From an uncultured Bacilli bacterium (GTDB lineage Bacteria; Bacillota_I; Bacilli_A; RFN20; CAG-449): 64,000 nucleotides of DNA. The notes below the pieces were generated by a model that did no database searches, was not told the origin of the DNA, and worked only from the letters and a program-made list of their open reading frames with translations. Position numbers and translations under genes: made by a program. This document shows, one piece after another, positions 4,355 to 61,579 of this stretch (the first letter of the stretch is position 1; each line of letters starts with the position of its first letter). The DNA lies in assembly GCA_944332075.1 (NCBI GenBank), contig CALVJL010000001.1, positions 217,620 to 281,619 of the forward strand, given 5' to 3'.

Positions 4355-4375
4355 AATAAACTATCTATCTTAGCT

Positions 4376-7575: not shown

Positions 7576-7590
7576 ACAAACTACCCCCTT

Positions 7591-8484: not shown

Positions 8485-8649
8485 ACATCTTATATTATAA
8501 GAGTGAAAAATAAAATAGCACCCTATTGCTACAGCCCTGCAAAAGAGAGCCGTTTCCACTAAAAATAGAGTGTATCGAACTTATCTCCTAAAAAGAGAAT
8601 ATGGCTAAATCATTGCATAAATCGAACATTTCGCTATATAATTAAACAT

Positions 8650-39044: not shown

Positions 39045-40751
39045 TTATTCGTATAAGGCTAATTCGTAAATGGACCAGTAATTATTGCTCGCTTGGCCTA
39101 TTAAAGAGATTTTTAATTTTTTAATATTCATCTTTGTAAAAGAAATAAACTGAGAACCGATTTGTCCGTCATATTCACCTAATAAACGATAATTATCATT
39201 CTCACTAATTTTGCATTCGATTCTTAGTTTTCTGCCATAATCGCAGTCAGGCGAAAATAAGAAAATTTGACCGACATCATGGTATTTTTGGAAAGTAATC
39301 TCTAAATAACTGCTGCCATCAGAAGTCTGAGCTGCACCGTTGCTAAACCGCGTTTGATAATCTAAATCGCTTAAATTGCTAACTGGACTTAGATATTCTT
39401 CTTTTGAAGCAGCGATATCGTATAACGATGGAGATATTCTCTGATTTTCTAAAGGATTAATCGGGCCAGTTGATTGCTTGATTAAATCTTTTAAAAAGGC
39501 ATTCTCTTGGTAATAGCTAGTTTGATAATGGCTGAGTTTTTCTTTAATTGTTTCTAAAGAATCTTCTTGCCAGTTGACCGTTACCGCATCGGGAGCTAAA
39601 AATAATCCCCAATTATTAGAAAAATCGGTGTCGGTATTTTTATAAGTCCAGCTCGTCCACGCGATATTTAATGAATTTAAAGTATTCATAAACGTTAACC
39701 ACGCATCAGAAATAGGGAAGAAATTATATTCTCCAGCTAGTAAAGGAATGTTATAAGCTTTTTGATATTGTTTTAAGTATGTAATTTGTCCATTAGCGAA
39801 GCCAACTTGTCCATTATAAGAATGGTCGCTATCGTTATAATGATGCGTTTCATAAACAACATTTGTCCAGTTATAATCAAGAGGATTGCCAATATCATCA
39901 TAGGAATAAAACGCACCGATGACGATGATATGATCTTTGTCAATAGCTCTTACTGCATCATAAAGTAAATCGTACATTTCACCGCGGCTTAATAAAGTAT
40001 CCTCGCTCGGAACTGGTTCATTTAATAATCCATATCCCATCACTGCTTCTTCTCCGTTATAACGTTCAGCGATTGCTTTCCATATTTTAACGGTAAGCTT
40101 TTGGTATTCAGTATTAGTCCATAATTCATTTGACCCGGTTTGTCCGCCAGTTAACCAGCCATTGCTTTGTCCGCCAGGAGCACCGTGAAGATCAATAAGC
40201 GTATATATACCTCTTTTTTTACCTTCATTAATCGCCCAATCAAGATTTTCAAAAGCACTTTCTTTAATATTGCCTTCATCATCCATGAGCTCCATATAAT
40301 AAACAGGAATTCTAATTAAATTTAATCCTAAAGAAGCGATATAATCTAAGTCATCTTCAGTAAAATATATGCTTTGATAATAAGACATTATTTCTTCGTA
40401 TTCGGCATTTGAAAATCGATTTTTTAAAGCAGTTCTAACCGCATAATCGTTATTATCATTTCCTCCACCGTCCATCCAGCCTTCTAAATGTAACCATCCT
40501 CCGATATTGATTCCTTGTAAGGAAATAATCTCACCATCTTGATTAACATAATTTGTATCTTTAGCAATTAAAAAATCCTTGTCTTGAAGCATTTTATCAT
40601 CAAAGGAAGAGCTAGAAGAAATGGATGTTGAAGTAACTGAACTATCATTATTACTTACAAAAGAACTACTACTTGAAGGTATGTTATTTTGACAAGCGAA
40701 GAGAAGTGATACGCTTAAAAGCGACATTAATATATATTTTATCTTTTTCAT
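39045..40751 (-). CDS. Lipoprotein GH5 glucanase with C-terminal F5/8 (CBM32-like) module
   Basis: Lipobox LFA-C, Ser linker; GINIGGWLHLEGWM, LIDLHGAPGGQ, LLNEP (acid/base), LAGEY (nucleophile), WTSWTYK; C-terminal TRFSNG..Q and WSIYEL. Confidence 0.88.
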   Translation of the reverse strand: MKKIKYILMSLLSVSLLFACQNNIPSSSSSFVSNNDSSVTSTSISSSSSFDDKMLQDKDFLIAKDTNYVNQDGEIISLQGINIGGWLHLEGWMDGGGNDNNDYAVRTALKNRFSNAEYEEIMSYYQSIYFTEDDLDYIASLGLNLIRIPVYYMELMDDEGNIKESAFENLDWAINEGKKRGIYTLIDLHGAPGGQSNGWLTGGQTGSNELWTNTEYQKLTVKIWKAIAERYNGEEAVMGYGLLNEPVPSEDTLLSRGEMYDLLYDAVRAIDKDHIIVIGAFYSYDDIGNPLDYNWTNVVYETHHYNDSDHSYNGQVGFANGQITYLKQYQKAYNIPLLAGEYNFFPISDAWLTFMNTLNSLNIAWTSWTYKNTDTDFSNNWGLFLAPDAVTVNWQEDSLETIKEKLSHYQTSYYQENAFLKDLIKQSTGPINPLENQRISPSLYDIAASKEEYLSPVSNLSDLDYQTRFSNGAAQTSDGSSYLEITFQKYHDVGQIFLFSPDCDYGRKLRIECKISENDNYRLLGEYDGQIGSQFISFTKMNIKKLKISLIGQASNNYWSIYELALYE

Positions 40752-40769
40752 AAATCACCTACAAAAAGA

Positions 40770-40790
40770 GGAGTTAGATTAACTAACTCC
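40770..40790 (-). terminator. Intra-operon hairpin/terminator upstream of GH5
   Basis: Minus strand GGAGTTAG-ttaat-CTAACTCC followed by TCTTTTT. Confidence 0.65.
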
Positions 40791-40796
40791 CCTGAC

Positions 40797-41132
40797 TTAT
40801 CCTAACGGGACATAAGGCAAATCAACATTATCTTCATCATCAGATATAATAACGCTGCTAGATGAACCTGTGCTTTCTGAAGAGGATGGAGCACTAGAGC
40901 TACTTGATGAAGCTCCTGCGCTACTAGAAACAGAAATAGTTACACTAGAAGGTGAAGAAACACTAACAGACGCTGACGAAGTAACGCTATTTTGGGAGCT
41001 TGACGATGTTAATTCAGATTGACTAGTTGATAGAGGGTTAGATGAAGTAACTAAACTTGAATTCCCACCGCATGAAGCAATAAAGCCCAGTCCGGCCAGA
41101 GTTAAGACGCTAAATAATAGAATTTTTTTCAT
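40797..41132 (-). CDS. Small Ser-rich lipoprotein
   Basis: Lipobox IAS-C, almost entirely Ser/Thr linker, short acidic tail DDEDNVDLPYVPLG. Confidence 0.75.
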   Translation of the reverse strand: MKKILLFSVLTLAGLGFIASCGGNSSLVTSSNPLSTSQSELTSSSSQNSVTSSASVSVSSPSSVTISVSSSAGASSSSSSAPSSSESTGSSSSVIISDDEDNVDLPYVPLG

Positions 41133-41134: not shown

Positions 41135-41272
41135 TTAGAAAATATCTTTCTCATTTGGCCATATATCAAATTCGTCCCAGACACCTTCAATTGGTTCAGT
41201 AGAAGTCGCAATAATATCATCAAGACTAATTTGTTCAATTACAATTTTTGGTTCAATATAATTCTTTTTCAT
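41135..41272 (-). CDS. Unannotated 45-aa peptide with a YxxPxI leader-like N-terminus
   Basis: SD AGGAGG; MKKNYIEPKIVIEQISLDDIIATSTEPIEGVWDEFDIWPNEKDIF*; stop is 2 nt before the next ATG. Confidence 0.8.
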   Translation of the reverse strand: MKKNYIEPKIVIEQISLDDIIATSTEPIEGVWDEFDIWPNEKDIF

Positions 41273-41291
41273 TTTATTTGCCTCCTACTAA

Positions 41292-43964
41292 TTAATAGCT
41301 AAACGCTAAAACAGGTTCATGGAATCTAACATTTGACTTGAAACTAACATTACCGATTGTGACAAAAACTAAATCAGCATTTTCTGAGAATCTGCCATCA
41401 TTTAATCCTTCATTCAAGGTGCCGGATTCAAATGCACAATTTTTATCGCCACCATGTTCAAATAACATATCGTATAAAGTAATGTTACCTTCGCTATCGG
41501 TGTAAACGTAAATACCTTTAGCAATACAAGGATTTGCATTATTATCAATAAATCCTTTTGAATTATAAAGAGTAAATAATTTCAATGTTTCAGTTCCGCC
41601 AGACATATTGGTGAAATCAAGAGTTCTTGCTGCGTTGATACCGTCAAAAGTATATCCACCATCTTTTACTGAAATGCTAATTTCGCTAGCACCTTCAGCT
41701 AAAACACCAGCATAACTATTTTTAATCTTTAATGTAGTTGCAGATTCTTTATCTAAAGTAAGAGCAACATTACTTAAAGGTGATCCGGTATTATTTGAAG
41801 CAACAGGATATTGAGCATCGCCGACAATATCTAAAGTCGAACCTTTTAAAGTTAAATTAGTTCCTCCGGCAGCTAAAGCGTAACGGCCATAGGAAGCAAC
41901 TGTGATAGTTGAAGCGGCAGCTTCCATCTTTCCGTTTAAATAGAATCCATATCCAAATCCAGTAACAGTAATTTTTGAACCTTCTGCAGTGATATATCCA
42001 GCTGTTAAACCAGCTTTATCATTATCATAAACAGAGATTTCATTTTCAGTTTTAACATCAACTGTTGCATTAGTTAAAGTCAAGCCGCTTCCTGCTTGTC
42101 CAGCTGGAGATTCAACTTTAATGCCTTCAGCTTTTACATCGCCAATTTCGCCTTGTAAATCAACATCTGCTTCATTACGAGAATGAATAGTTGCTTGATA
42201 GTCAACATTTTCCATCACGGCATCACCATAGAATCTCGCACTGCCATCAACTGTTACTTTAGCTTTTTCTTCACTAGAAGATTTTAATGTGACAACTTGT
42301 TTTTCATTATTGCTATTGCCAACGTATAAGCTATACTCTAAATCTTCAATAGCTTCAGTATTATCACCAACTGTATGACGTCTGCCTTTTTCTGTAAAGG
42401 CTGCACCGGAAACTGTTAAACTGCCATCAACAACTAAATCAGCTGAAGAATTATAAACAAAGATTCCGCCATCAATAACTGCATCTTTTGCAAACGTAAT
42501 GGTATATTTATCTTCTTTATTATTATAAGTGATTGAATATAATTCACTATCTGCTTCTTGTAACGTATAAGGACTAAACTCTTTATCACCGATTTTTATA
42601 CCAGAAACGATGCTAACAGAAATATTTTGTCCGTTAAATGATAAGATACCTGTTTCATTAATCCAGTTAGGTCCATCAACTGTATCTTGATGGCTTAACT
42701 GAGAATTTTGAGTATAAGTGGTACCTTCTGATAATGAAGGAATTTCAGTTTGCTCAAAAACAAATTCATCGTATTTTTTGCCCATTAAGCCACTTTCAGT
42801 TTCGGTTGGTGAAACCAATAATGTATAATTTTGCATCTTAATTTCATCTTTATGCTCATAAGCAACGGCCGAAGCGCAGTAGTTCGTGGCAGCTTGATAA
42901 AGAGACAAATCAGCTTCTTCTAAATCATTATCTGACAAATTTTTCATATATGTACTAATTGAATAATGCAAAGTTTGTCCAAAAGAATATAAATCATCCG
43001 GTTTATCTAAAGTGTAGCATTGGAAAGTTAATGTAACTTCGGAAGTAAATTGAGCCGCGGTAATTGTATCAACAGATAATTCATATACATTACCATCTTG
43101 TCCGTTAACTGAGACTCCTTCTTGAACTGGATTACCGAATTCAACTTTTTCTGTCACATATTGATTATCACCAATAGTTGTTGTCAAGCGTAATCCGTGG
43201 GTAGTTGCAAGCATTGAAACCCAGTTATTAGCAATGAAAACGCGGAATTTTAAAACTAAGCTGTCAGCAAAAACAACATTACCTCCGAGCCAAGCAATAT
43301 CTGGAGAACTTTCTCCATCAACTAAATATTTAGATGTTAATGAAGAAGTATCGATTGTATTACCGTTTTCTGTTAATCCAAATTCTTCAAGTAAATCAGA
43401 TGCTAACGTATCTGTTTTATGTCCGGTTTTAACTTGAGCAGCCGCGGCATAAGATAATGTATCAGCAGCGATATCTTTTAAATATTCATCATCATTTTCA
43501 GCAACGACTTTTCCTAAATAATCAGCAACTGAAGTGGTAAGAGTTTGATCAGCAACGCTGATTTCCATCTCATCAATAACGCATTGAGGAGTAATTTTGT
43601 CTAAAACATATTTGTATCCGCCTAAGGATTCATCATATGTTCCTTCAATTGTTCTCATTTCTAATGTTTCAACAAATTTTACAGTCATAGAAGGAGCAGT
43701 TTCTTGCTGTCCAACTTTATAGACAAAATTCATCTTTAAATCGTGTGAAAGCGTTAAAGATCCATCAATAAGACTTGTTTGATTGTCAGCTCTTCTTAAA
43801 TTAGTCGCTGGCATTGTTACATCAATAACGGTTTTTTCTTCGCTAACCTGACTAATGTCATCATGAGATAAAGAAGGCAGTACATTATAAGATGATGCGA
43901 TTCCTATTCCCCCACATAACATCGCAAGTAAAGCAACATTAACTAGTAAATTTCTTTTTTTCAT
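41292..43964 (-). CDS. Large secreted protein: tandem N-terminal domains plus probable beta-helix
   Basis: Signal peptide; two similar units; Gly/Ala/Thr-rich stacked-strand C-terminal half; SD AGGAGG. Confidence 0.75.
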   Translation of the reverse strand: MKKRNLLVNVALLAMLCGGIGIASSYNVLPSLSHDDISQVSEEKTVIDVTMPATNLRRADNQTSLIDGSLTLSHDLKMNFVYKVGQQETAPSMTVKFVETLEMRTIEGTYDESLGGYKYVLDKITPQCVIDEMEISVADQTLTTSVADYLGKVVAENDDEYLKDIAADTLSYAAAAQVKTGHKTDTLASDLLEEFGLTENGNTIDTSSLTSKYLVDGESSPDIAWLGGNVVFADSLVLKFRVFIANNWVSMLATTHGLRLTTTIGDNQYVTEKVEFGNPVQEGVSVNGQDGNVYELSVDTITAAQFTSEVTLTFQCYTLDKPDDLYSFGQTLHYSISTYMKNLSDNDLEEADLSLYQAATNYCASAVAYEHKDEIKMQNYTLLVSPTETESGLMGKKYDEFVFEQTEIPSLSEGTTYTQNSQLSHQDTVDGPNWINETGILSFNGQNISVSIVSGIKIGDKEFSPYTLQEADSELYSITYNNKEDKYTITFAKDAVIDGGIFVYNSSADLVVDGSLTVSGAAFTEKGRRHTVGDNTEAIEDLEYSLYVGNSNNEKQVVTLKSSSEEKAKVTVDGSARFYGDAVMENVDYQATIHSRNEADVDLQGEIGDVKAEGIKVESPAGQAGSGLTLTNATVDVKTENEISVYDNDKAGLTAGYITAEGSKITVTGFGYGFYLNGKMEAAASTITVASYGRYALAAGGTNLTLKGSTLDIVGDAQYPVASNNTGSPLSNVALTLDKESATTLKIKNSYAGVLAEGASEISISVKDGGYTFDGINAARTLDFTNMSGGTETLKLFTLYNSKGFIDNNANPCIAKGIYVYTDSEGNITLYDMLFEHGGDKNCAFESGTLNEGLNDGRFSENADLVFVTIGNVSFKSNVRFHEPVLAFSY

Positions 43965-43979: not shown

Positions 43980-44648
43980 CTAGTAAGTGCTGTAATGCGC
44001 AAAGGTATCGAGAATATCTTTATAAAAAATATTGTCGGTAACTGTATTACTTTCATTTTCGTTTTGAGCTTGAGTTACAATCACTTTTCTCGCGCAGACA
44101 TATTGATCATAGACATAATCTGGGTCCGCGCTTAATAAAGAAAAGTCATAGACAGCGTCAGCTTGGGCATGCATCGTCCAACTGCCAAGATTTGCCGTAT
44201 TAGCCGAAATATCTGAGCCGAAAATCTGTTCGCTTCCAGATGTCGGATTAGATAATGAGACAATATATTTTCCATTTTCTTCATCTAAATAGTTATAGGT
44301 AAAGGTGCCGGAAATATCGACTGATAATCTCGCGACTTCAAGATTTCCCCAGTCGCCTGGATTGCCTAAGATGATGGAATATTGATAGTTATAGGTATAG
44401 TCTCTTGATAAGACTAGTCTTTGGTCAATTCGATAAAGAATATTTTGATTAACGGTCATATCTCTTTGAGGATAAATCGAACAATAGAGATAGTCGCCAT
44501 CTTGAATTTCTTTTTTAAACTGCGTCGTAATCGCATCGTTATAAGTAAAGGTACCCCGTAAGGCGCTTTCTTTAACGATTTCCTGCTGTCCTTGGCAAGA
44601 TGCGAAAACCAATAGAGCTAAAGATAAAGTTAATATTTTCTTTTTCAT
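43980..44648 (-). CDS. Lipoprotein, unknown function
   Basis: SD GGAGG before MKKKILTLSLALLVFAS-C at 44648. Confidence 0.8.
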   Translation of the reverse strand: MKKKILTLSLALLVFASCQGQQEIVKESALRGTFTYNDAITTQFKKEIQDGDYLYCSIYPQRDMTVNQNILYRIDQRLVLSRDYTYNYQYSIILGNPGDWGNLEVARLSVDISGTFTYNYLDEENGKYIVSLSNPTSGSEQIFGSDISANTANLGSWTMHAQADAVYDFSLLSADPDYVYDQYVCARKVIVTQAQNENESNTVTDNIFYKDILDTFAHYSTY

Positions 44649-44653
44649 CGTGA

Positions 44654-45658
44654 TTACCTCCAGTTCAAAATCGGTAAGTGCCAAGCCGAACCAAGTGCAT
44701 AGAACGTGCAGCCGTTAACTTTAACTTGGTAAGCATCTCCGTCATAAACACCTTCGCTATTGGTGTAGCCTTGCATATCGACCAATCCCTGATTAAACTG
44801 ACTAGATTTAAATGTCGATTGATAATATGCCGGATTATAAGCATAAGCAAAATTAAATCTCGTCTCGTTGCCGTTTCCGTCATTGAAGACATAAATTCCT
44901 TCAACTTCAATTGGTTCAGTGATATTAGCATTAAAATTATTTGATGATTTAGTAACGTATAGAGTTAAAGTTTCTTTTCCTCCATCAGCGTTAATGAAAT
45001 CAAGAATTCGATCTTCGTTATCAACTAATGCATTAGGATCAGATGTAAAGTTAAATGAATAAGATAATGGCCCGGCTAACAAGGAAATCTTTCCTTGATA
45101 GAAGGTTTCATGTTTACCAGGAGTGACAGAAATCGAATAGTAATAATCCGGTAAAACAATAACTGTATCATCGATATTTGGATATTCCACCGGCTTAGTA
45201 AATTCTGTAGCCGCGCCGCTTAGTTCAGCCCAGACCAACATTCCTGATGTATCCCATTCTCCACTAGAATTTTGATATATTTCATCATTTCTAACATCAA
45301 TATGTCTAACCATATAGACTTCTACAGGATAATAAGCATTGTAAATTTTATTTCCTTCAGTAAAGGTATAGGTAACCATCTTACTGCCGGCATTTGAGAA
45401 ATCATTAGTAATTGTATATTCATCTGGATTTAATGTTTTGCCGTCAACAATAAAATTAATACCAGTCGGATTAAATTCTTCGCCGATAAGATATTCAGTC
45501 CGCGCGGCAGGTGAAACTTCTAATTCTCCGCTTAGATAGGTAACTTCATCTGAGGAATTTAACCCGGCCCAGCTAAGAAGTGATGCGCATAAAATAACAG
45601 TAACTCCCGCGGAAACAGAATAGATAATCTTGCTAGTTTTAGAACTCATATTGCTCAC
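44654..45658 (-). CDS. Anchored protein with a bacterial Ig-like domain
   Basis: N-terminal hydrophobic helix; RTEYLIGEEFNPTGI Ig-like motif. Confidence 0.7.
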   Translation of the reverse strand: MSNMSSKTSKIIYSVSAGVTVILCASLLSWAGLNSSDEVTYLSGELEVSPAARTEYLIGEEFNPTGINFIVDGKTLNPDEYTITNDFSNAGSKMVTYTFTEGNKIYNAYYPVEVYMVRHIDVRNDEIYQNSSGEWDTSGMLVWAELSGAATEFTKPVEYPNIDDTVIVLPDYYYSISVTPGKHETFYQGKISLLAGPLSYSFNFTSDPNALVDNEDRILDFINADGGKETLTLYVTKSSNNFNANITEPIEVEGIYVFNDGNGNETRFNFAYAYNPAYYQSTFKSSQFNQGLVDMQGYTNSEGVYDGDAYQVKVNGCTFYALGSAWHLPILNWR

Positions 45659-46106
45659 CTTCTTTCTTTTTAATCATTGGGAAGAAGGCAGCAATAACTG
45701 TTAAAATTACAGCGATAACGTAACAGCCCACTCCGACAAAGCAAAGAGGTACGCCTTTTGCATATGTTTCCATATCACCCATATTTACGGTAAAGAGAAT
45801 GCCGATTGGTGATAAACATGGTATCAAGAAATAAGCAAAGGAAATCATTAAAGCAAAGACATTTATTACATAGAAGATACTGACTAAACGCGGACGATCC
45901 CCGGCAAGGAAACCATTGATTAATAGAAATAATGTTCCGTATATCGCAATAATAGTCAAAGCGATAACAAACTTATCATAGCTATATGAAAAAGTATTGA
46001 AGGTTAGGAAGAAATAGATAAAACCGACTATGGTCAAAATTAACGATGCGAGCAATAAATAGAATCCTGCTCCCATACTTTTTAATCTATTGAGCATGCT
46101 CATCAC
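45639..46106 (-). CDS. Small 4-TM membrane protein coupled to GH3
   Basis: Overlaps the GH3 stop; four hydrophobic segments. Confidence 0.8.
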   Translation of the reverse strand: MMSMLNRLKSMGAGFYLLLASLILTIVGFIYFFLTFNTFSYSYDKFVIALTIIAIYGTLFLLINGFLAGDRPRLVSIFYVINVFALMISFAYFLIPCLSPIGILFTVNMGDMETYAKGVPLCFVGVGCYVIAVILTVIAAFFPMIKKKEGEQYEF

Positions 46107-49100
46107 CTCCTTGAGAGACTTCAGTTTCTAAATTGTCTTTCTTCTTATAGAAGGTAAAGAAAACAATTCCGCCAATTGTGGCTAAAGCTAAACCGCCAAA
46201 GCCAGATGATAAGCCGATTAACATATATTCCCAGCTCGATCTTTGATCAGCGACGATAACTGTATCAGCATCATAACCATTTAAAGCTGAAGAATTTGCT
46301 AAGGCATACATGTAGTAATGCATATTTTCATATAAGGCTTTGCAGAGGTTAGGATCATTTCTAACTTTATTTTTATCGTTATAATCAGGCCAGCTATTCT
46401 TTAAGAGATTTTCAGCATTACTTGTCGCCATGAAGGTAACGTTATTAATAATTGAATCTTGAGGGTTAAAGAAACGTCCGCCGACGACCATATCGGTAGA
46501 AATTAATCCTTTATAGCCCCATTCTCCTCTTAGAATATTTTTCATTAAACCAGTATGAGCATTCACGCCGCAGCAACCGATTCTTGAGAACGATGTCATT
46601 AAGCCTAAAGCATTGATTTCATTGCCTTCATCGTTAACGTATTCAACATCTTCGGCTAAGCCTTGGAACGCTCTTAATTCCATTTCACGAGCTGACTGCT
46701 CTTCCATAAACTGAGTTAAACCTTCACGGTAGGATTCTTGAGTATTGAAAGCGAAGTGCTTTGCCGCTAAAATCATACCTTTAGATAATCCGCCGCGAAC
46801 AAAAGCTGTTCCTAAAATATTAGTTAACATTGGATCTTCTGAATAATATTCATGGTTACGGGAATTAAATGGTGTCCGGTGTAAATTCATTCCTGGAGCC
46901 CACTGGATTTGGTTACGGCTCCAAATTCCATCTTCACCATAAATCTTGCCTTCTTCTTCAATTAAATCTTGATCAAAAGTAGCAGCAACTAATGGTTCAA
47001 CTGGCATATCGCAGGACATATAGTTAGCATTAGGATCGTTTTTCGAAATTGAAAGATATCCTGAGGTTGGAGCTTTATTAGAAACAGATCTTGTAACATT
47101 GCCGTTAGGTCCATCAATTTGCCATACTTCAGGAGCGTTTACGGATTTAAAAGGTTTACAAGAAGTTCCGCCATAAGGTGAGAATTGCCAAGCTTCATCA
47201 AAAGTGATTTGCTCTAATAGATAATCCCATTCTTCATCATCATAGGCTTTGCCTTTGTATTCGGCGATTGATTTATTTTCTAATGGGTTGCCATCAGCAT
47301 CTTCATCAAGAGAATGATCAACGCCGAAATTAACACCCGATGAGCCTCCGCTAGTGAAGGAATAAACTCTTCCGCCATTGCTATCGTCTGTTCCGAGGTA
47401 TTTTCTCATCTCTTCAGTGATTTCTATTTCACTTGTATAAGAAATCGGGAAAGTATCTTTCCAGTTATTACGAGATAAATAGGTAACAGTATTATTTTTA
47501 AAATAGTTATAATCAGCATCTTCAAGTTGATTTTCAGTTATAACTCCTTCTTCCGAAGTATTTAATAAAGTCGCATTGACTGAATCGACAAAACTTCCGC
47601 CATCTTGTGAAGTTAATCCTGCTTCAAGAGCTGGATTCCAGCTCATCGCTAAAGCAGTATCAATTGTTTGATTATCAAAGGAATATAATTTATCAACCGA
47701 CGATGGATTTTTAATAGCTAAAACATTATTTAAAGCTTGGTGAGCACCATTTCCAATAGAGAAATAGTAATCGCCGTCTTCTAAAATATATCCGCCGGTT
47801 TTTCCATCATGCTCAGCAGTTTTATCATATGAAGCAAAATATTTTAAATCAGCTTTTAAAGTTACAACTTCACTATTAGGCTTTTCTTCTGATGCTTCAG
47901 AAAGAGGATAAAGAGTTTGGGTTTTATCAAAAGTGATTAATTGAATCGCGCTTTTTTCAACGCCGTGATCAATATCATATTGAGTATATGGTGAAGAGAC
48001 ATAAAGCTGAACCGCATCCTTAGCAGCATAATCACCGACATTAGTGACTTTGACATTAAACGTTAAAGATTTATCTTCAGGATCATAGCTATACATCGCC
48101 CCATTTTCATCAGCGACAAATTCATATGAAAATTCGCTGTAGCTTAAACCATATCCAAAAGGATAGACTACTTCATTTTCATATTTCCAAGATTGATTAT
48201 CGCCCTCTCTACCTGAGCCAACGATATCTTGAGCATTACCTCTATTTTCAATTACATCATTATAACGGGTTTCGTAGTAATAATAACCGGTATAAATATC
48301 TTCTGCTAAAACGACATAGTGATAATTATCGGCATGTTTATACACTCCGCCAAACTCATCAGCGTTTTCCCAAACAAAATCACCAGAACCATCAACTGCA
48401 CTAACACCATAGTTTTGAGCAGCTGGTGAAGCTGAAGCATCGACAGCATAGGTATCTGGTAAATGTCCAGAAGGTGAAGTTTTGCCGGATATTATATCCG
48501 CTACACCATTCATTCCATATGAACCAGGAATACCAATCCACATTACCGATGAAACTAAATCACCTAATTCATTGCCGTCTCTTAATTCAGAAATTTCCAT
48601 TGCAACTGCTGAATTAACTAAAACGATAACATTATCAGAAATTTGTTTAGCTTGACGAATTAAATTTCTTTCATTATCTGATAAATTTAATGATGACTTT
48701 GATCCATCGCTTTTATCAGCAATTCCGTTTTGACCAGGGAAATATTCTCTTCCTTCGCCGGAAGCCCGACCAATTACGACAATCGCGGCATCACTATATT
48801 GATCAGTATTTTCAAAATCGCTTGCTTCCACATAAGGCTCATTAATTGAAAATGGTCCCCCTTGTTGACCATTAGCCTCGGACCCAGATGGTAAAGAAGG
48901 ATAATTTAAATTAGAATAAACATTTTTTGATGATGGGTTAACTTCAATTCCTCTGCTAGTTAAAGCATCTTCTAAAGTAATAGGAACATTATAAGTACCA
49001 TCTTCAACAGTTACTGTTTGCTGACGAATCGGACTGCCGACGATACCTCCATATGTCGCTAAGGAAGTATCTCTTAATGTTCCCGAGCTAGTATAAGTAA

Positions 49101-49431
49101 AAGCTCGTGAACCGAGGATGGTTACTTTCTTATTGCCTCCTGCTAACGGCAAAGAATCATTTTTGTTTTTGAGTAAAACACTTCCATCAGCAGCAAGCTG
49201 TTCAGCTATTTGTTTCCGGTGAGTATAAAGTTCTGTTGTACTTTCATATTCGCTTGGGAACTTATAAGTAGCTGACCCCCCCCCGGCTGCAGAATTGTTC
49301 ACTCCGAAGACTCCATCGACCATTGACTTATAATCAGATGATGAGGTTGCAATTAACTCCAATGTCAAAAACAACGCACTGAAGAAAGACAAAGATACGC
49401 AGAGTCCCCTTAATAGTCTTTTTTTATTCAT
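46087..49431 (-). CDS. Membrane-anchored GH3 beta-glucosidase (GH3_C - Fn3 - GH3_N order)
   Basis: GSVLLKNKNDSLPL, EDIYTGYYYYET, YPFGYGLSYS, AKHFAFNTQE, RAFQG, LMTSFSRIG, ISTDMV; C-terminal TM; start MNKKRLL at 49431 with SD GGAGG. Confidence 0.92.
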   Translation of the reverse strand: MNKKRLLRGLCVSLSFFSALFLTLELIATSSSDYKSMVDGVFGVNNSAAGGGSATYKFPSEYESTTELYTHRKQIAEQLAADGSVLLKNKNDSLPLAGGNKKVTILGSRAFTYTSSGTLRDTSLATYGGIVGSPIRQQTVTVEDGTYNVPITLEDALTSRGIEVNPSSKNVYSNLNYPSLPSGSEANGQQGGPFSINEPYVEASDFENTDQYSDAAIVVIGRASGEGREYFPGQNGIADKSDGSKSSLNLSDNERNLIRQAKQISDNVIVLVNSAVAMEISELRDGNELGDLVSSVMWIGIPGSYGMNGVADIISGKTSPSGHLPDTYAVDASASPAAQNYGVSAVDGSGDFVWENADEFGGVYKHADNYHYVVLAEDIYTGYYYYETRYNDVIENRGNAQDIVGSGREGDNQSWKYENEVVYPFGYGLSYSEFSYEFVADENGAMYSYDPEDKSLTFNVKVTNVGDYAAKDAVQLYVSSPYTQYDIDHGVEKSAIQLITFDKTQTLYPLSEASEEKPNSEVVTLKADLKYFASYDKTAEHDGKTGGYILEDGDYYFSIGNGAHQALNNVLAIKNPSSVDKLYSFDNQTIDTALAMSWNPALEAGLTSQDGGSFVDSVNATLLNTSEEGVITENQLEDADYNYFKNNTVTYLSRNNWKDTFPISYTSEIEITEEMRKYLGTDDSNGGRVYSFTSGGSSGVNFGVDHSLDEDADGNPLENKSIAEYKGKAYDDEEWDYLLEQITFDEAWQFSPYGGTSCKPFKSVNAPEVWQIDGPNGNVTRSVSNKAPTSGYLSISKNDPNANYMSCDMPVEPLVAATFDQDLIEEEGKIYGEDGIWSRNQIQWAPGMNLHRTPFNSRNHEYYSEDPMLTNILGTAFVRGGLSKGMILAAKHFAFNTQESYREGLTQFMEEQSAREMELRAFQGLAEDVEYVNDEGNEINALGLMTSFSRIGCCGVNAHTGLMKNILRGEWGYKGLISTDMVVGGRFFNPQDSIINNVTFMATSNAENLLKNSWPDYNDKNKVRNDPNLCKALYENMHYYMYALANSSALNGYDADTVIVADQRSSWEYMLIGLSSGFGGLALATIGGIVFFTFYKKKDNLETEVSQGGDEHAQ

Positions 49432-49469
49432 GACTAGGGTGTCCTCCATTTGATAAAAATATTATAAGC

Positions 49470-54471: not shown

Positions 54472-55329
54472 ATGAAAGATTTTTCTAAATATAACATAGA
54501 TTTAGATGTATTTTATTCTGGTGCAGAACGTAAAAATCAAATTACTATCAACGATAATAGGTACATAATAAAATATCAAAAGAACTCAGAAATCGGACTT
54601 ATTTATAATCATGTCAGCGAATATTTAGGAAGTCACATATTTGACCTTTTAGGCATTCCGGTCCAGGATACCCGCCTTGGAACATATGCTGGTGAAAATG
54701 TTGTTATAGTCAGAAATTTCTGTGAAGAAGGCGAAGTTCTTGTGCATTTCAACGATATCGGAGAAAGTTCTTTAGAAGAGGATAAAGAACTATTTCAATA
54801 CTCCTATGACGATATTCAAAAGATGTTAGAAGAAAACAGAAAGCTAACCCGAGTTCAAGAAACAATAGAAAGATTTTGGGATATGTTTATTGTTGACGCT
54901 TTAAATGGTAACTTTGATAGACATGGAGGAAACTGGGGATTTATTAAAAAAGATAATAAGTATTCAATGGCTCCTGTTTATGATAATGGATCAAGTATGT
55001 ATCCAAGAATCAATACCGATGAAAGAATATTAGAAATATTAAACAATCAAGAAGAGATTGATAGACGAATTTATCAATTTCCGACATCACATATAAAGCT
55101 TAACGGTAGGAAAAGTTCATATTATGAAGTAATAAATAGTTTACAGTTTGAAGAATGCAATAAGGCATTAAAAAAAATTGTTCCAAAAATTGATTTCGAA
55201 AAAATTGATAAATTAATCGATTCTATAGAAAGCATCAGCGATATAAGAAAGAAATTTTATAAAACGATGTACCATTATCGTTATGAAAAAATACTAAAAT
55301 TAGCTTTAGATAAATTAAAAGGCAGGTGA
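54472..55329 (+). CDS. HipA-superfamily (CtkA-like) kinase
   Basis: YSGAERK loop, YIIKY, SEYLGSHIF, NFDRHGGNWG, APVYDNGSS. Confidence 0.85.
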   Translation: MKDFSKYNIDLDVFYSGAERKNQITINDNRYIIKYQKNSEIGLIYNHVSEYLGSHIFDLLGIPVQDTRLGTYAGENVVIVRNFCEEGEVLVHFNDIGESSLEEDKELFQYSYDDIQKMLEENRKLTRVQETIERFWDMFIVDALNGNFDRHGGNWGFIKKDNKYSMAPVYDNGSSMYPRINTDERILEILNNQEEIDRRIYQFPTSHIKLNGRKSSYYEVINSLQFEECNKALKKIVPKIDFEKIDKLIDSIESISDIRKKFYKTMYHYRYEKILKLALDKLKGR

Positions 55330-55333
55330 TAAT

Positions 55334-56218
55334 ATGCAGCATAATGAATATAATACGCCGATAAATATGCGTCCATATTTTAGAAATATTGGTCTCATAA
55401 AAGTCTATGATAGAGATAATAATACTTACTTAGTTGGTGAGATAGTTTTTGAAAGATTTGATGATCAGAATTATCAATACATCATTAAGCCGTATTGGAA
55501 CTGTATTGATAGTCTGCCTAAGGGATTATTTCAAGGAATTCCAGGGATTAACATGGACTTACGTAAAGAAGCTTATTACCGCGTTAATATGACACCGAGT
55601 TTTATTAGCATGCGTACTCCGAGTCAATCTAGAGAAGATGTTGACAATTTGATGAAATCTGTCGGCCTTGATTATTATGATAGATTTGAATGGTTATTAA
55701 GAAGCGAAATAAAATGCGGTGATGATAATCTTTTAGTCGTGAGAAAATCTTCAAAACCTCAGACAATCAAAGGCTTTGAAAATATCGCTGAATATAACCT
55801 TTCTCCAGATGATATTTTATCAATAGATAGTTTAAGCGATTTTCAAGCAACTAATGCAAGTATAGTTAGAAAAATTTATCAACTATTGCAGTCGTGGGTC
55901 AATATTTATATTGAAAGCGAGAATAGATATTTGCAAGATAATGAAAGAAAAGCAATGCTATATTTATTAAGAAATATACTTGTCATTATGGATAGAAACA
56001 TTAAAACCAACCGCGAAAATGGACGGGAGCAAGCAAAAGCTTTAAAACATTATCGCGGCAGAAAACCAATAAAGGTAGATTATCATCAGTTAAAACAGAT
56101 TCTCTATGAATTTGAGAATAATTTAATTTCTGAACAAGAAGCAATGCATAGGCTATCAATTAATTCAAGATCAACATTTTATAGAAAACTAAAGCTAGTA
56201 CGTAATAATTGCTTGTAA
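55334..56218 (+). CDS. Putative antitoxin/regulator: HipS-like N-terminus fused to a degenerate serine-resolvase body and HTH
   Basis: FISMRTPSQSRED...GLDYYDRFEWL; DDILSIDSLSDF in place of GDTLVV.KLDRLGR; AKALKHYRGRKP; SRSTFYRKLK. Confidence 0.6.
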   Translation: MQHNEYNTPINMRPYFRNIGLIKVYDRDNNTYLVGEIVFERFDDQNYQYIIKPYWNCIDSLPKGLFQGIPGINMDLRKEAYYRVNMTPSFISMRTPSQSREDVDNLMKSVGLDYYDRFEWLLRSEIKCGDDNLLVVRKSSKPQTIKGFENIAEYNLSPDDILSIDSLSDFQATNASIVRKIYQLLQSWVNIYIESENRYLQDNERKAMLYLLRNILVIMDRNIKTNRENGREQAKALKHYRGRKPIKVDYHQLKQILYEFENNLISEQEAMHRLSINSRSTFYRKLKLVRNNCL

Positions 56219-56387
56219 ATAAAAATGTATAACCTTTTTTCTTAAAATACTCAATAATAATTATAAATGTTATTAATGACTTATTATTTTATCCATATAT
56301 TAAAAGGTTTAATCAATTTAGTTTTTATTAATTTTGCTCATTATATTTGACATAAATAAAACAAGATTTACCTTAGTCATTTTGCTA

Positions 56388-56753
56388 TTAATCACCGTTA
56401 TGTTCAATCTTTTTCCATTTAACTTTTTTAAATAACGCAATCAAGGATAATGGAACATAGATAAAGCAAGAAAATGGGAAGAAGAAACAAGCCAAGAACT
56501 GATAAGACACCTTGCAGTCAACTTTTTTATAAGTAACAAAGAAAGTACATAATCCTGAGATAAAGGAAACGATAAAATATACCCCAATAAATGAATAGGT
56601 ACATCTTAAGATATTCATCCATCCTTCAAAATTACTAACGTTATGCAAGGCAAAAGCATCAATGCCAAATAAAACACTTTCGAATGAAACGATTAAGTTT
56701 TTAAAAACAAAAGAATATTCAACCCAAATAAATAATTTTATATCTATATACAA
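56388..56753 (-). pseudogene. C-terminal fragment of a GT2 membrane glycosyltransferase
   Basis: TM helices ending in IALFKKVKWKKIEH, typical of GT2 C-termini; no catalytic domain upstream. Confidence 0.5.
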
Positions 56754-56803
56754 AATCTGTCTTTGAGAAGCTACATATAAACTAATGTATTTTTAGTAAA
56801 AGA

Positions 56804-56906
56804 TATACCTTATAGGGTATAAATTATTTGATTATACATATTAAACACCCGATAGGGTATAAATATAACTATAAGCATTGACAAGAACCCCGAACGGGTA
56901 TAAAAT
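56804..56906 (+). promoter_or_regulatory. hipB promoter with three palindromic operator repeats
   Basis: CCY-N4-GGGTATAAA with GGGTAT at 56815, 56855 and 56896; TTGACA(56878)-17 nt-TAAAAT(56901). Confidence 0.8.
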
Positions 56907-56913
56907 TTAGTAT

Positions 56914-57120
56914 ATGAATGTAATTGCCGACTATGTAAAAAAGAATAGAAAAAAACTTGGTCTTACCCAAAAAGAATTTGCTACACGCGCAGGATTAGGT
57001 CTTCGCTTTGTACGCGAACTTGAAGAGGGCAAGAAGACTTTACGTCTTGACAAGGTCAATCAGGCGCTTGCCATGTTTGGTATGGAAGCAATTCCTGGGA
57101 GGATAGAACATGACGAATGA
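56914..57120 (+). CDS. hipB: HipB-like (Y4mF-type) HTH protein
   Basis: RKKLGLTQKEFATRAGLGLRFVRELEEGKKTLRLDKVNQAL. Confidence 0.85.
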   Translation: MNVIADYVKKNRKKLGLTQKEFATRAGLGLRFVRELEEGKKTLRLDKVNQALAMFGMEAIPGRIEHDE

Positions 57121-57445
57121 AAACTTCCGCATGGCTTATGTCTATGTTCGCAAAACCTTTGCAGGTATATTAAAGGAGACTGACGAAGGTTATTCATTTC
57201 AATATGATAACGACTATGCTTCAGATTCTTCCAATGCTCCTGTCAGCCTCACTCTTCCTCTACAAAAAGAAGAATACACATCGAAATGGCTTTTTCCATT
57301 CTTTGACGGACTTATCCCCGAAGGTTGGCTTTTAGACATAGTAACGCATAACTGGAAACTTGATTACCGTGACAGATTCGGTATTTTATTGGTTGCTTGT
57401 AAAGACGCAATAGGTGCAGTCAGCATAAGGAGTGAAAAGAAATGA
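57110..57445 (+). CDS. hipS: Stand-alone HipA N-terminal domain (HipS-like)
   Basis: YSFQYD, PVSLTLP, FPFFDGLIPEGW, DAIGAVS. Confidence 0.85.
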   Translation: MTNENFRMAYVYVRKTFAGILKETDEGYSFQYDNDYASDSSNAPVSLTLPLQKEEYTSKWLFPFFDGLIPEGWLLDIVTHNWKLDYRDRFGILLVACKDAIGAVSIRSEKK

Positions 57446-58392
57446 AATGCTTATGTTGCAACAAAATTATAGCCGATAACGCTTCCGACAATGAAAAAAT
57501 CAATGATTGGCATACTAAGTGCGTCAAACAATTTTTTGGAACTTCAAAATTCCCGATGATAGATATTTCAAGCAAAAATCTTGTAGAAATTGCAAGAGAA
57601 AGTACAAATAAAGGTTTTACTGTTCCTGGTGTACAGAAGAAACTATCTCTCCACTTTGAAGGTGGAGCTAAGCCAAGACTCACTTTGTCAAACTATCCTA
57701 CAGGTTATATACTTAAACCGCAGACTGAAGAATACAAAGCTCTGCCAGAAGCTGAATTTTTAGTAATGAGCATGGCGAAAATTACGGGCATTAAAACAGT
57801 ATTGTTCGCACTTGTAAAACTTGACAATGGCTATGCCTATATAACCAAAAGAATTGATCGAGAAGGCGAAAATATGCTTGCTATGGAAGACTTCTGCCAG
57901 CTTGATGAAAGACTAACCCAAGACAAATACAAAGGCTCTTATGAGCGTTGCGCAAAACTAATAGATAGATATTCCGAGCAAAGAGGTTTTGATATGTCTG
58001 AACTCTTCTTGCGACTTGTATTCAGCTTTGTTGTAGGCAATTCTGATATGCATTTGAAAAACTTTTCGCTAATTGAAGATGGTGCAGGCAGTCAGAAATA
58101 TATGCTTTCATCTGCATACGATTTGTTACCTGTCAATGCCATACTGCCCGAAGATGACGAGCAGTTTGCTCTTACCATTAACGGCAAAAAGCGCAATATT
58201 CACAAAAAAGATTTTCTTTTATTCGCTGAAAATGTTGGCATACCTGCTTTAGCAGCAAAAAAAATCATAGCCGATATAGTATCCCTTGAAGATACTTATA
58301 TCTCAATGTGTAAAGATAGCTATCTGCCTGAACATTTAAAAGCAGCTTTGATTGATATAATTACATCACGTACGAGCGTTTTGCGGAGCTGA
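57442..58392 (+). CDS. hipT: HipA C-terminal kinase toxin (HipT-like)
   Basis: TVPGVQKKLSL, YILKP, EDFCQL, GNSDMHLKNFS, SAYDLL; N-terminal CxxC...HxxC. Confidence 0.85.
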   Translation: MKCLCCNKIIADNASDNEKINDWHTKCVKQFFGTSKFPMIDISSKNLVEIARESTNKGFTVPGVQKKLSLHFEGGAKPRLTLSNYPTGYILKPQTEEYKALPEAEFLVMSMAKITGIKTVLFALVKLDNGYAYITKRIDREGENMLAMEDFCQLDERLTQDKYKGSYERCAKLIDRYSEQRGFDMSELFLRLVFSFVVGNSDMHLKNFSLIEDGAGSQKYMLSSAYDLLPVNAILPEDDEQFALTINGKKRNIHKKDFLLFAENVGIPALAAKKIIADIVSLEDTYISMCKDSYLPEHLKAALIDIITSRTSVLRS

Positions 58393-58458
58393 GCATCCAA
58401 TTAATGTCTTATTATAAAATTATTTTTTTACAAAAGCTCTCATAAAAGATGACTATGT

Positions 58459-59091
58459 TTGAGAAAAATAGATGATAAATTATCTGAATTCATATATTGT
58501 GAACGAAATGGGAAGCTTTTGAAGAAAACCAATAAAACAATTTTATTAGAAAGCGAAATTGTCTACCCATTTGTAAAGGCACCTAGTATAGATGATAATG
58601 AAATAACAAGTACCGAATTATATTGTATATTTCCATATCCAATGGGTGCTAAGCAACCTTATGATTTAAAGTATGTAAGAACTCATTATCCACATTTTTA
58701 TAATTTCCTTATGTCTAAAGAGGTTCAACATGCAATTAATACTTCATCATCATATAACCAAAGAATACAAAATGTTGGTGATAATTATGGAATATTTAGG
58801 GTGGGAGAGTATACATGGTCAGACTGGTTTTTGATAACAAGAGATAACACTAAATCATCATTTGCTGTTTGCGGAAAGCTTAAAACACCTTGGGGAGAAA
58901 TTAAACAGCCTATATTTGATGGGCATGTAAATTATGTGTCTCGTGATGAAAACGGAAATCCAATAACTAAAGCTAGGGCATATGATTTATTTAAAAAGTT
59001 TACAAGAGAAGGTGTTAAATTATACGTTAAATGCTCTTCTGATTCTCGCTCAATATCAGGAAGATTGTATAATGATATCGATTTAAGTTAA
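58459..59091 (+). pseudogene. Probable C-terminal fragment of a DNA methyltransferase / RM protein
   Basis: No SD, TTG start directly after hipT; YPFVK..IFPY and RVGEYTW..RDNTK..PWG patterns recall MTase target-recognition regions; no catalytic motifs. Confidence 0.35.
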
Positions 59092-59311
59092 AATTTTTAA
59101 AGACCATTTTAGTTTTTATAAAATAAGTATGCTTTATATATATTGAGTAAAAGTAATTTTTTAAAATAATAAGTATATTAATCGTGTCAATATAATAGTA
59201 ACCAATTTGGATGCAGAACATTTTACCACTTTTGGTGAAATCGTAAACATCCTTGATGGTTACTTTTTAATTAGGGTACATTATTTCCTATATAAAGGAG
59301 GATGAATAACA

Positions 59312-60537
59312 ATGGAAATATGTACTAACCTTATAGGTGAATTATCTTGCTTAAAAATGATGAATATTAAACCTAATTTTTCAGATTTATCTAGAAGATA
59401 TAAGATAGATCGACATACTATTGCTAAATATTATAGAGAAGGGGGAAAATTTACAAAAAAAAAGCGAAAAAATCAAAATTCTGTCTATGATAAATATTTA
59501 AATGAAATTATAGAAATATTATCTCAACCCGGAGTAAGTAAAGTTGCTGCTTACCAATATCTAGTTGGAAAATATCAAGACTTTCATAAAAACTATAATA
59601 CATTTAAATCTTTTACATTAAGAAAAAATATTACACCTACTAAAACTAAAGTTGAACCGCATGTTCGATACGAAACTAAACCAGGAGAACAATTACAAGT
59701 TGATTGGAAGAAAAGTGTGAAAATGACATCTAAAACAGGAGAAGTATTTGATTTTAATATCTTTACTGCCACTATGGGTTATTCTAGATTACATTTATTT
59801 TCTTATTCTAAAACTAAAACGACTGAAGATTTTATCCGGTGCACAATTGAAACATTTAGAAAGTTAGGTGGTCTTCCTAACCATATCTTAACTGATAACA
59901 TGTCCACAGTTGTTTCTATTACCAATGGGACTAAATTCAAAAATTATAAAATTAAACAATTTGAAAAAGATATTGGTTTAAAAATTAAATTATGCAAGAC
60001 TAAGTCACCTGAAACAAAAGGTAAAGATGAATCTTCTAATCGATTTATTTCTTGGTTATTGCCATATGATGGGAAATTTGCTGATGAATCGGAATTGATA
60101 TCAATTATTGATAAAATCAATCAACAAGTTAATAGACAATCTAATAGGACCACTAATATGCCTCCTATTACTCTTTCCCTAAAGAAAAAGAATATCTAAA
60201 ACCTCTTCCTAATAAACTTCTTCTTGAATCTTATATAGAAGGAGTTTTGACTCAAACTGTGCCATCAACACTGCTTGTTTCTTATAAAGGCTCTGGATAT
60301 TCTGTTCCACCGAAATTTATTAACAAAAGGGTCAAACTAATTCCTATTGATAATAAACTCTATATTTATTATAACGAGTTATTAGTTACTGTTCATTCTT
60401 TATCATCAAATATATTTAATTATAAAAACGAACATTATAAAGATGCTTTGAAAATTAGAATTTCTTCTAAAGGTGATGATTCAATTGAAGAAATGGCTTC
60501 TAACAATCTTAAAATGTTTGATTATATGAAAAAATAA
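59312..60537 (+). pseudogene. istA: IstA transposase, frameshifted near 60180
   Basis: RYETKPGEQLQVDW, LTDNMSTV, PETKGKDE; continuation KEKEYLKPLP...YSVPP lies in the -1 frame. Confidence 0.85.
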
Positions 60538-60545
60538 GGAGTATT

Positions 60546-61304: not shown

Positions 61305-61368
61305 TTACTTAAATCAAAATTGGTTATTAAAGTTTCGCCCAAATTGGTTACTATTATATTGACACGAT

Positions 61369-61579
61369 TGCGTCCATATTTTAGAAATATTGGTCTCATA
61401 AAAGTCTATGATAGAGATAATAATACTTACTTAGTTGGTGAAATAGTTTTTGAAAGATTTAATGATCAGAATTATCAATACATCATTAAGCCATATTGGG
61501 ACTGTATTGATAGTCTACCTAAGGGATTATTTCAAGGAATTCCAGAGATTAACATGGACTAACGTAAAGAAGCCTATTA
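61369..61579 (+). repeat. 211-bp diverged copy of 55368-55578
   Basis: TGCGTCCATATTTTAGAAATATTGG...GAAGC(C/T)TATTA; about eight substitutions by manual comparison, one creating TAA. Confidence 0.92.

Follow-up and report, generated by a model that had tools for sequence, protein, structure and literature searches.

Does the 45-codon open reading frame (ORF) that lies between the gene for an 890-aa secreted protein and a lipoprotein gene in an uncultured Bacilli bacterium of the chicken gut encode a genuine peptide, and, if so, is that peptide the precursor of a ribosomally synthesized and modified product (RiPP) or a partner of the adjacent surface protein? A reading of the sequence alone had drawn attention to its strong Shine-Dalgarno sequence, its translational coupling, its YxxPxI leader-like motif and its acidic Trp-containing tail in the absence of a nearby maturase, and had proposed an uncharacterized peptide/surface-protein system, exemplified by a donor beta-strand that completes a fold in the 890-aa protein or by a RiPP matured in trans. 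We examined the window, by which we mean the whole 64,000-nt stretch of contig CALVJL010000001.1 that was analysed, and then sought relatives of the peptide elsewhere. The analysis indicates that the ORF is a real, conserved small gene from a large undescribed family of gut and rumen peptides that begin like a RiPP leader, end in an acidic tryptophan-rich tail, and almost always sit just after the gene for a big secreted surface protein; no function is yet known for them.

The small gene and its conservation

Every feature that the sequence-only reading described in the DNA was found to be present (Table 1), and its observation is upheld. The peptide has no hydrophobic signal sequence. The window comes from a low-GC (32%) MAG lineage, sibling contigs of which keep the same gene order: GH3, membrane protein, Big_3 protein, lipoprotein, 890/894-aa protein, peptide, Ser-rich lipoprotein and GH5. 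In these relatives a 7-nt deletion turns the junction with the upstream gene into an ATGA overlap, and a stop-to-Glu change adds two residues so that the ORF overlaps the downstream ATG. The ORF is conserved in at least 16 variants of the lineage, which are 87-100% identical; residues 1-25 vary only by V11I and S16N, whereas the tail varies at six positions. Between the window and one sibling contig (L001) there are four synonymous and three conservative replacement changes, which are too few for a rate test but compatible with purifying selection. Two metatranscriptomes hold only thin contigs over parts of the operon, touching the peptide ORF only at 41135-41150, which is not evidence of translation.

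Table 1. Features of the window that bear on the 45-codon gene.
Position	Strand	Feature	Observations
41135..41272	-	Small gene, 45 codons plus TAA (41135-41137), encoding MKKNYIEPKIVIEQISLDDIIATSTEPIEGVWDEFDIWPNEKDIF	Conserved as an ORF in sibling genomes
41201..41272	-	Leader-like N-terminal 24 residues: MKK, Y5-x-x-P8-x-I10, alternating hydrophobics, A22-x-S24	Same motif starts at least 115 distinct short ORFs elsewhere; modelled by AF2 as extended, pLDDT 72-76
41138..41200	-	Acidic aromatic tail, residues 25-45: 7 D/E, 1 K, net charge -6, W32, F35, W38, F45	AF2 confidence falls along the tail (block means 58, 53, 49); no secondary structure assigned
41281..41286	-	Shine-Dalgarno AGGAGG, 8-nt spacer to the ATG	GGAGG kept in relatives
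41292..43964	-	Upstream partner: 890-aa secreted or surface protein with N-terminal signal/anchor; stop at 41292-41294, 19 nt before the peptide ATG	Orphan without Pfam or NCBIfam domain; only homologue a 97% identical cluster; AF2 model unusable (pLDDT 36)
41364..41636	-	C-terminal domain of about 92 aa in the 890-aa protein, shared with the 334-aa Big_3 protein (44744-45019)	blastp 35% identity, E 1e-10
40797..41132	-	Translationally coupled 111-aa Ser-rich lipoprotein (lipobox ..FIASC); ATG (41130-41132) 2 nt after the peptide stop	Same order in relatives
40767..40793	-	Terminator-like hairpin, 11 pairs plus a T run, closing the 890-aa protein-peptide-lipoprotein unit	No terminator-like site between the 890-aa gene and the peptide
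43980..49449	-	Rest of the co-oriented surface glycan locus: 234-aa lipoprotein, 334-aa Big_3 protein, 155-aa membrane protein, 1120-aa GH3	Synteny kept in three sibling contigs (L001-L003)
39045..40751	-	GH5 cellulase-family lipoprotein downstream of the terminator	PF00150, E 5e-30
151-8559		Second GH3 locus	Unrelated orphan proteins; no peptide

Searches by sequence similarity found few homologues. Pfam and NCBIfam have no model for the peptide, the 890-aa protein, the 234-aa lipoprotein or the 111-aa lipoprotein, and no paralogue of the peptide was found in the window. A word-indexed search and an exhaustive phmmer search of 1.8 billion representatives found only the sibling cluster and one eukaryote-like repeat protein (P0002), which is spurious.

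The sequence-only reading had stated that no RiPP enzyme or RRE (the leader-binding element of lasso and other RiPP systems) is encoded in the window, and this agrees with Pfam and NCBIfam scans of 28 of the larger ORFs, mostly in 1-28 kb and 39-49.5 kb, and with inspection of the small free ORFs: no RRE, peptidase, modifying enzyme or exporter was seen among them. The scans were not exhaustive, leaving out several ORFs between 28 and 39 kb and beyond 50 kb. The only radical-SAM gene is rlmN-like, an assignment that rests on its translation and on the precomputed Pfam families of its ortholog in L001 rather than on a scan of the window ORF itself.

A family of peptides and its genomic context

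A scan of one genome per species seeded with MKKNYIE found two further ORFs in Prevotella/Prevotellaceae MAGs, which share 58-63% identity over residues 1-24, have acidic aromatic tails and lie 39-65 nt after a secreted protein; a third turned up in the protein collection. The same seed applied to metagenomes gave 539 stretches, none of which was confirmed by tblastn. From these four sequences (the window peptide and three Prevotella-type peptides) we wrote a degenerate DNA pattern for M-K-K-x-Y-x-x-P-x3-h-x2-h-x-h-x2-h-h-A-x-S, with hydrophobic positions written as NTN codons. It has no match in 2.9 million viral contigs and at least 120 matches in metagenomes, mostly from rumen and human-gut samples. 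Because the motif was derived from the query and the metagenome scan was not exhaustive, the counts are lower bounds and the sample is biased toward the exact motif; assignment of the metagenome loci to Prevotella-like Bacteroidota rests on two labelled MAGs and on a shared C-terminal domain (see below).

Nearly every match opens a short ORF of 37-96 aa (median 57), giving 115 distinct sequences. No match yields an ORF shorter than 37 aa, apart from one cut at a contig end, and only one, also cut at a contig end, runs on past 96 aa. The pattern fixes only 24 codons, and with roughly 3/64 stops per codon we infer that about half of chance matches should end within 13 more codons, yet none does. 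Family members have three parts: a conserved N-terminus of about 24 residues, with a consensus close to MKK-T-Y-I-x-P-E-x-E-V-V-K-V-E-L-Q-Q-M-I-A-A-S; a variable G/D/E/S-rich stretch; and an acidic C-terminus carrying Trp, Phe or Tyr. The composition of the tails, which the pattern does not constrain, is strongly non-random: D+E make up 25%, G 11% and W 3.5% of residues; mean net charge is -6; W falls within the last 15 residues in 86 of 115 sequences and some aromatic residue does in 112 of 115; and many Bacteroidota-type tails end in ..SR(E/R)x2-6[WF][DE][DE][DE]. Codons at the fixed residues vary freely, with P8 using all four codons and S24 using both TCN and AGY, so that conservation is at the level of the protein, and DNA-level conservation or a recombination site is rejected as an explanation for the motif.

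The window peptide carries the full N-terminal motif, and its length and tail also lie within the family pattern. Agreement with a motif partly derived from this peptide is to that extent circular, but at positions that the pattern did not fix, the peptide still fits family preferences better than chance (+1.7 bits against a null of -18.7 +/- 8.1, p about 0.005). Its nearest look-alikes are the Firmicutes-type peptides MKKNYEMPEIEFIQLNILDIIATS... (the L015 group of loci) and MKKEYEAPKLTIEEVSVLDIIALS... (locus L019). None of 89 members matches a Pfam family, and 7 of the 89 give weak, sub-threshold hits to lasso precursor models (NF033528 and NF033524), six of them to NF033528 (lasso_cyano, best E 0.005) and one to the paeninodin model. 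A profile of the family found nothing in the PDB. Small ORFs like this are largely invisible to curated resources. Automatic gene calling does find such ORFs (entries P0001 and P0032-P0034 of the protein collection), but none carries a name or a curated family, and full-text literature searches for sequence strings of the leader and of the C-terminal domain found nothing relevant, nor did searches combining T9SS with small proteins or with RiPP terms.

Tabulation of the neighbours of N-terminal relatives had been suggested in advance as one way to check the proposed pairing, and it gave a consistent answer. Of 103 distinct members with enough upstream sequence, 97 have a same-strand ORF ending within 200 nt, with a median gap of 34 nt; the complete upstream proteins have a median of 697 aa and reach 2534 aa, whereas the downstream neighbour is variable and often on the other strand. 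The window peptide, behind its 890-aa signal-bearing partner, conforms. All-against-all BLAST of 538 neighbouring ORFs gives one large component of 123 proteins in 95 loci, 88 of them the immediate upstream gene, and nothing else recurs beyond redundancy. The shared part is a C-terminal domain of about 100 residues (..FYKV..AxKAYL..FDDETTGI..YDLQGRRVxxPTKGLYIVNGKKVIVK), present in 81 of the 97 upstream proteins, which Pfam PF18962 and TIGR04183 barely see, but the profile of which hits the C-termini of three solved glycoside-hydrolase or beta-helix chains and, weakly, the RgpB C-terminal domain; we infer that it is a short Prevotella-type T9SS sorting domain. Starting from the protein side, 8 of 12 further proteins with this domain in the same loci are also followed by a YxxP peptide that the pattern had missed, and these members found without the pattern mostly carry A-x-S as well. 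The remaining partners are also mostly secreted proteins: BspA-type LRR and Listeria-Bacteroides repeat proteins, PA14/DUF7601 proteins of Firmicutes, a serpin lipoprotein and a dockerin protein. A local HMM of the Prevotella-type domain (..YxLxGxRVxxxxKGxYIxNGKKVxxK) does not hit the 890-aa protein, the 334-aa protein or the other Firmicutes partners, and a link between the 890-aa protein and this domain is rejected. The common denominator across phyla is therefore a large exported protein encoded just upstream. The recurrence of similar peptides next to large surface proteins in gut Firmicutes and Bacteroidetes, which the sequence-only reading had asserted, is thereby confirmed.

No enzyme accompanies the family in the same way. 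Among 148 other neighbours within 3.5 kb, no RiPP enzyme family is enriched: Radical_SAM appears four times, NTP_transf_5 twice and ABC twice, and PqqD, Asn-synthase and transglutaminase-like families are not among the 25 commonest families, beyond which the tabulation did not extend. No 60-130-aa ORF that could be a discrete RRE recurs near about 115 members. The exception is a Cys-rich branch of 89-96 aa (loci L009, L010, L032, L124 and others) that starts MKKQYRKPEIAIEDFVLNQFIAGS and also follows a 1500-aa surface protein. In L010 and L032 it is followed in turn by a 299-aa protein, a membrane protein, a radical-SAM enzyme, an NTP_transf_5 protein and an S24-like peptidase, and in L010 (probably also in L032, whose last ORF is cut and was not scanned) by an ABC exporter; next to these in L010 lie three ORFs that look like capsule genes from their translations. 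PDB searches with the 299-aa and 151-aa proteins of the L010 cluster gave nothing useful. This gene set resembles the recently described LPP clusters (PMC13381572), so that this type of N-terminus is used as a RiPP leader in at least one branch, although the pattern could have pulled in a convergent or only distantly related leader class.

Possible roles of the peptide

The analysis itself demonstrates that the ORF is a genuine small protein gene, that it belongs to a large, uncurated, cross-phylum family of gut and rumen Bacteroidota and Bacillota with a conserved leader and a variable acidic tail, that it is placed directly behind, and almost certainly co-transcribed with, the gene for a large secreted surface protein, and that no enzymes were seen locally; the mechanism that follows is inference. 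The interpretation offered by the sequence-only reading is partly supported: an uncharacterized peptide/surface-protein pairing, an N-terminal motif that recurs across phyla and resembles RRE-binding YxxP leaders, and one consistent neighbour are borne out, but neither of the mechanisms that it named was established. A donor strand for the 890-aa protein specifically is unlikely, because upstream partners share no domain across phyla and a peptide can be far better conserved than its partner, whereas maturation in trans is possible but was not tested.

Our preferred explanation, which is tentative, is a leader-guided peptide processed by machinery encoded elsewhere. In this view the YxxPxh segment would dock as a beta-strand onto an RRE-like or comparable peptide-binding protein that is common to all paralogues; the small-x-small A-x-S junction, which has the form of a signal-peptidase-type site, would be the processing site; and the acidic aromatic tail (here TEPIEGVWDEFDIWPNEKDIF) would be the functional product, made in step with the upstream surface protein and acting in the same cell-surface process. 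In the window, the peptide would be produced from the 890-aa protein-peptide-lipoprotein transcript of a GH3/GH5 glycan-degrading surface locus. Several findings favour a partner common to all copies over the individual upstream protein: the absence of a shared partner domain across phyla; a case in which the peptide is 84% identical while the C-terminal domain and the passenger of its partner are 57% and 24% identical; paralogues on one contig that keep the leader and change the tail; the Y-x-x-P-x-h motif, the best-conserved feature and the known RRE-binding determinant of lasso and LPP leaders; and the A-x-S junction, which also appears in most members found without the pattern. A leader function is further supported by the weak lasso-model hits, by the gene cluster of the Cys-rich branch, and by the extended AF2 model of the leader, as expected for a strand that folds on binding. 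Against this explanation stand the lack of recurrent processing genes, the failure of the window peptide itself to match any lasso or other curated model, the absence of evidence for translation or processing, and a survey of rumen isolates that finds RiPP and RRE clusters mostly in Bacillota and few in Bacteroidota (PMC13289728), which counts against trans maturation in the latter phylum; nor does a RiPP reading alone explain why the gene almost always follows a secreted-protein gene.

A bolder form of this explanation, doubtful but not excluded, is that the family constitutes a previously unrecognized two-gene module shared by gut Bacteroidota and Bacillota, in which a giant secreted surface protein is paired with a leader-guided acidic Trp peptide processed by a genome-wide, trans-acting recognition and cleavage system, and the tail takes part in export, anchoring or regulation of the surface protein with which it is co-translated. 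In Prevotella-type bacteria this would be a new, cargo-linked component of type IX secretion biology. If the peptides are processed in trans, they would be a large hidden pool of RiPP-like products without a biosynthetic cluster, which cluster-based genome mining cannot see; if they are helpers of their upstream proteins, they would bear on how giant adhesins, glycan-degrading enzymes and T9SS cargo are made or displayed. Either way the question is directly testable in cultivable Prevotella/Segatella species. The family has no Pfam, NCBIfam, PDB or literature counterpart in the resources searched, and it has a very regular position behind the genes of the largest surface proteins of abundant gut and rumen bacteria.

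The main alternative, possible but somewhat less likely, is an unmodified accessory peptide, made stoichiometrically with the upstream giant protein through translational coupling, that would add its N-terminal strand to a beta-sheet edge of the partner or of a conserved export or anchoring component, comparable to the cargo-specific helper genes placed after T9SS cargo genes. This better explains the strict gene order, and it is consistent with the lack of modifying enzymes nearby, with the position of the window peptide inside an operon of surface proteins closed by a terminator, and with the predicted extended structure, which is typical of peptides that fold on binding. However, the peptide has no signal peptide and so cannot follow its partner across the membrane, and a conserved leader with variable tails within one genome is not what a partner-specific subunit predicts, in addition to the points on partner domains and relative conservation above. 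Complexes were not modelled, and no fold search was attempted with the low-confidence model of the 890-aa protein.

A stand-alone secreted signal or bacteriocin-like peptide, exported and cleaved at A-x-S by a transporter encoded elsewhere and placed after surface-protein genes merely to use their promoters, is unlikely: the leader-plus-core layout, the many different tails per genome, and the dedicated ABC exporter and peptidase of the Cys-rich branch are in its favour, but there is no exporter near most members, the acidic, disordered, Cys-free tails are unlike known bacteriocins or pheromones, and chance promoter sharing would not give 97 of 103 cases behind one class of genes in two phyla. 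A true lasso peptide precursor, with a leader ending at T23-S24, a macrolactam between T25 and D33 and a Trp/Phe plug, is very unlikely despite the YxxPxI motif, Asp at core position 9 and the weak lasso-model hits of some relatives, because no B1/B2 or C genes were seen among the window ORFs scanned or recur near relatives, a core starting with Thr is atypical, and family tails do not conserve a ring-forming D/E position. A chance ORF or non-coding spacer is equally improbable, since the shortness of the ORF, the lack of proteomic evidence and the failure of phmmer to find homologues beyond the sibling lineage are outweighed by the conserved ORF, Shine-Dalgarno sequence and coupling and by at least 115 distinct ORFs of shared architecture and context.

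Comparison with known systems

The peptide works most like an LPP or lasso precursor in its leader, and like scattered trans-matured precursors in its genomic independence from enzymes. We do not regard it as a member of the LPP or lasso families: the curated lasso models are not matched, the defining enzyme sets were not found among the ORFs scanned, and the LPP motif is matched only in part. Strict placement after surface-protein genes has no described counterpart that we could find.

The LPP (linear polyphosphorylated peptide) precursors LppA of Bacillota (Popov et al. 2026, PMC13381572) are likewise short, with a conserved N-terminal YxxPx[VLI] leader followed by a highly variable C-terminus; the leader is bound as a strand by a discrete RRE and cut by a signal-peptidase-I-like (SpI-like) enzyme at a small-residue junction, and the clusters sit in cell-surface/capsule loci. 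The Cys-rich branch of the present family is flanked by NTP_transf_5, an S24-like peptidase and an MsbA-like ABC exporter. When the window peptide is compared by eye with the LPP consensus YxxPxVLxHQxIxFET|xxS, the Y, the P, the two hydrophobics and Q at +10 align but the FET junction and its spacing do not, a mixed outcome, without a scored LPP model, that does not settle whether the leader is of this type. Of the LPP cluster components (SpI-like peptidase, discrete RRE, HprK-like kinase, NTP transferase and MsbA-like exporter), none was found in the window among the ORFs scanned, and they are partly present only next to the Cys-rich relatives in L010 and L032. LPPs are reported only from Bacillota, whereas most members here are Bacteroidota-like, and LPP genes are not described as following giant surface-protein genes.

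Lasso precursors share the N-terminal Y-x-x-P-x-hydrophobic motif. Y5-I-E-P8-K-I10 is present in the window peptide, but T23 would lie at the expected -2 position only if cleavage follows S24, and the Y-to-T spacing is 18 rather than the usual ~15, so that the leader criterion for a lasso precursor can be read either way. The window peptide itself has no NCBIfam hit at E<=1, and neither the B protein (RRE plus transglutaminase-like protease) nor the Asn-synthetase-like cyclase (C) was found among the window ORFs scanned or among the commonest neighbour families of its relatives.

Orphan RiPP precursors matured in trans, such as the prochlorosins with one ProcM, provide a precedent for many paralogous precursors per genome that share one conserved leader, have diverse cores and lie scattered away from any enzyme gene; here, however, the leader class is different and no enzyme has been identified, and prochlorosin genes are not tied to one class of upstream gene. 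The nearest analogy for gene order is the cargo-specific helper gene placed directly after the gene of a T9SS-type cargo and dedicated to it, such as sprF/porP-like genes after type-B CTD cargo. Those helpers are outer-membrane proteins of about 300 aa with signal peptides, whereas the present peptides are of 40-60 aa, are cytoplasmic by sequence, and also occur in monoderm Bacillota that have no T9SS.

Other surface-protein and mobile-element loci of the window

The 890-aa protein and the 334-aa Big_3 protein share a C-terminal domain of about 92 aa, with 35% identity (E 1e-10), that is not covered by any Pfam or NCBIfam family. Within the gene for the Ser-rich lipoprotein, one metatranscriptome contig skips 66 nt, suggesting that the serine-rich repeat is polymorphic in length. 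A second, unrelated surface locus encodes a GH3 protein that is paralogous (31% identical) to the 1120-aa GH3, together with orphan proteins of 948 aa and 322 aa; no peptide follows this locus. Elsewhere in the window, translations indicate a region that looks like HipA-type kinase genes with an HTH gene, followed by an IS21-like element; none of these ORFs was compared with a family library. An 80-aa ORF in this region is nearly identical to the start of a 294-aa ORF, so that the region carries a duplicated gene fragment next to the insertion sequence.

Coordinates of features in the window and in the metagenome loci (L numbers)
Sequence	Coordinates	Strand	Feature
Window	41364-41636	minus	C-terminal domain of the 890-aa protein
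Window	44744-45019	minus	C-terminal domain of the 334-aa Big_3 protein
Window	40974-41041		Site of the 66-nt skip in the Ser-rich lipoprotein gene
Window	151-8559		Second surface locus with paralogous GH3
Window	54472-61562		Region with HipA-type kinase-like genes, HTH gene and IS21-like element
Window	55334-56218		294-aa ORF
Window	59312-61304		IS21-like element
Window	61320-61562		80-aa ORF
L010	3372-10160		Cys-rich branch locus
L032	6504-12692		Cys-rich branch locus
L089	4289-4468		Family member following a serpin lipoprotein
L095	7281-7460		Family member following a serpin lipoprotein

Upstream proteins and translation signals of the peptide family

The last ~100 residues of the upstream proteins in loci L005-L126 show a C-terminal domain (..FDDETTGI..YDLQGRRVxxPTKGLYIVNGKKVIVK) that is very common among surface proteins of rumen and gut Bacteroidota-like bacteria, yet almost invisible to TIGR04183 and PF18962. 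The same domain does occur at the C-termini of PDB chains 4kca, 7jvi and 8bbl, and it matches the C-terminal domain of RgpB only weakly. In four loci (L014, L049, L052 and L067), modules consisting of a cargo gene and a peptide gene are repeated in tandem on one contig; their leaders are similar or nearly identical, whereas their tails differ. Examination of the 20 nt upstream of the peptide ATG in loci L007-L126 shows a GGAG/GAGG/AGGA core before 42 of 114 family peptides, compared with 46 of 253 large ORFs in the same loci. This enrichment is unexpected, as Bacteroidota are said to lack Shine-Dalgarno use.

Radical-SAM genes next to family members

One family member (L089, L095) follows a serpin lipoprotein and overlaps by 19 nt the start of a radical-SAM gene, the product of which has an N-terminus that looks like a pyruvate formate-lyase activase; the overlap is probably coincidental. 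A Cys-rich branch of the same leader type (L009, L010, L032 and L124), with peptides of 89-96 aa, is encoded after a 1500-aa Firmicutes surface protein. In L010 and L032, the peptide gene precedes genes for a radical-SAM enzyme, an NTP_transf_5 protein and an S24-like peptidase, and in L010 also an ABC exporter, next to ORFs that look like capsule genes from their translations. This is an LPP-like RiPP cluster that has no discrete RRE ORF and an added radical-SAM gene.
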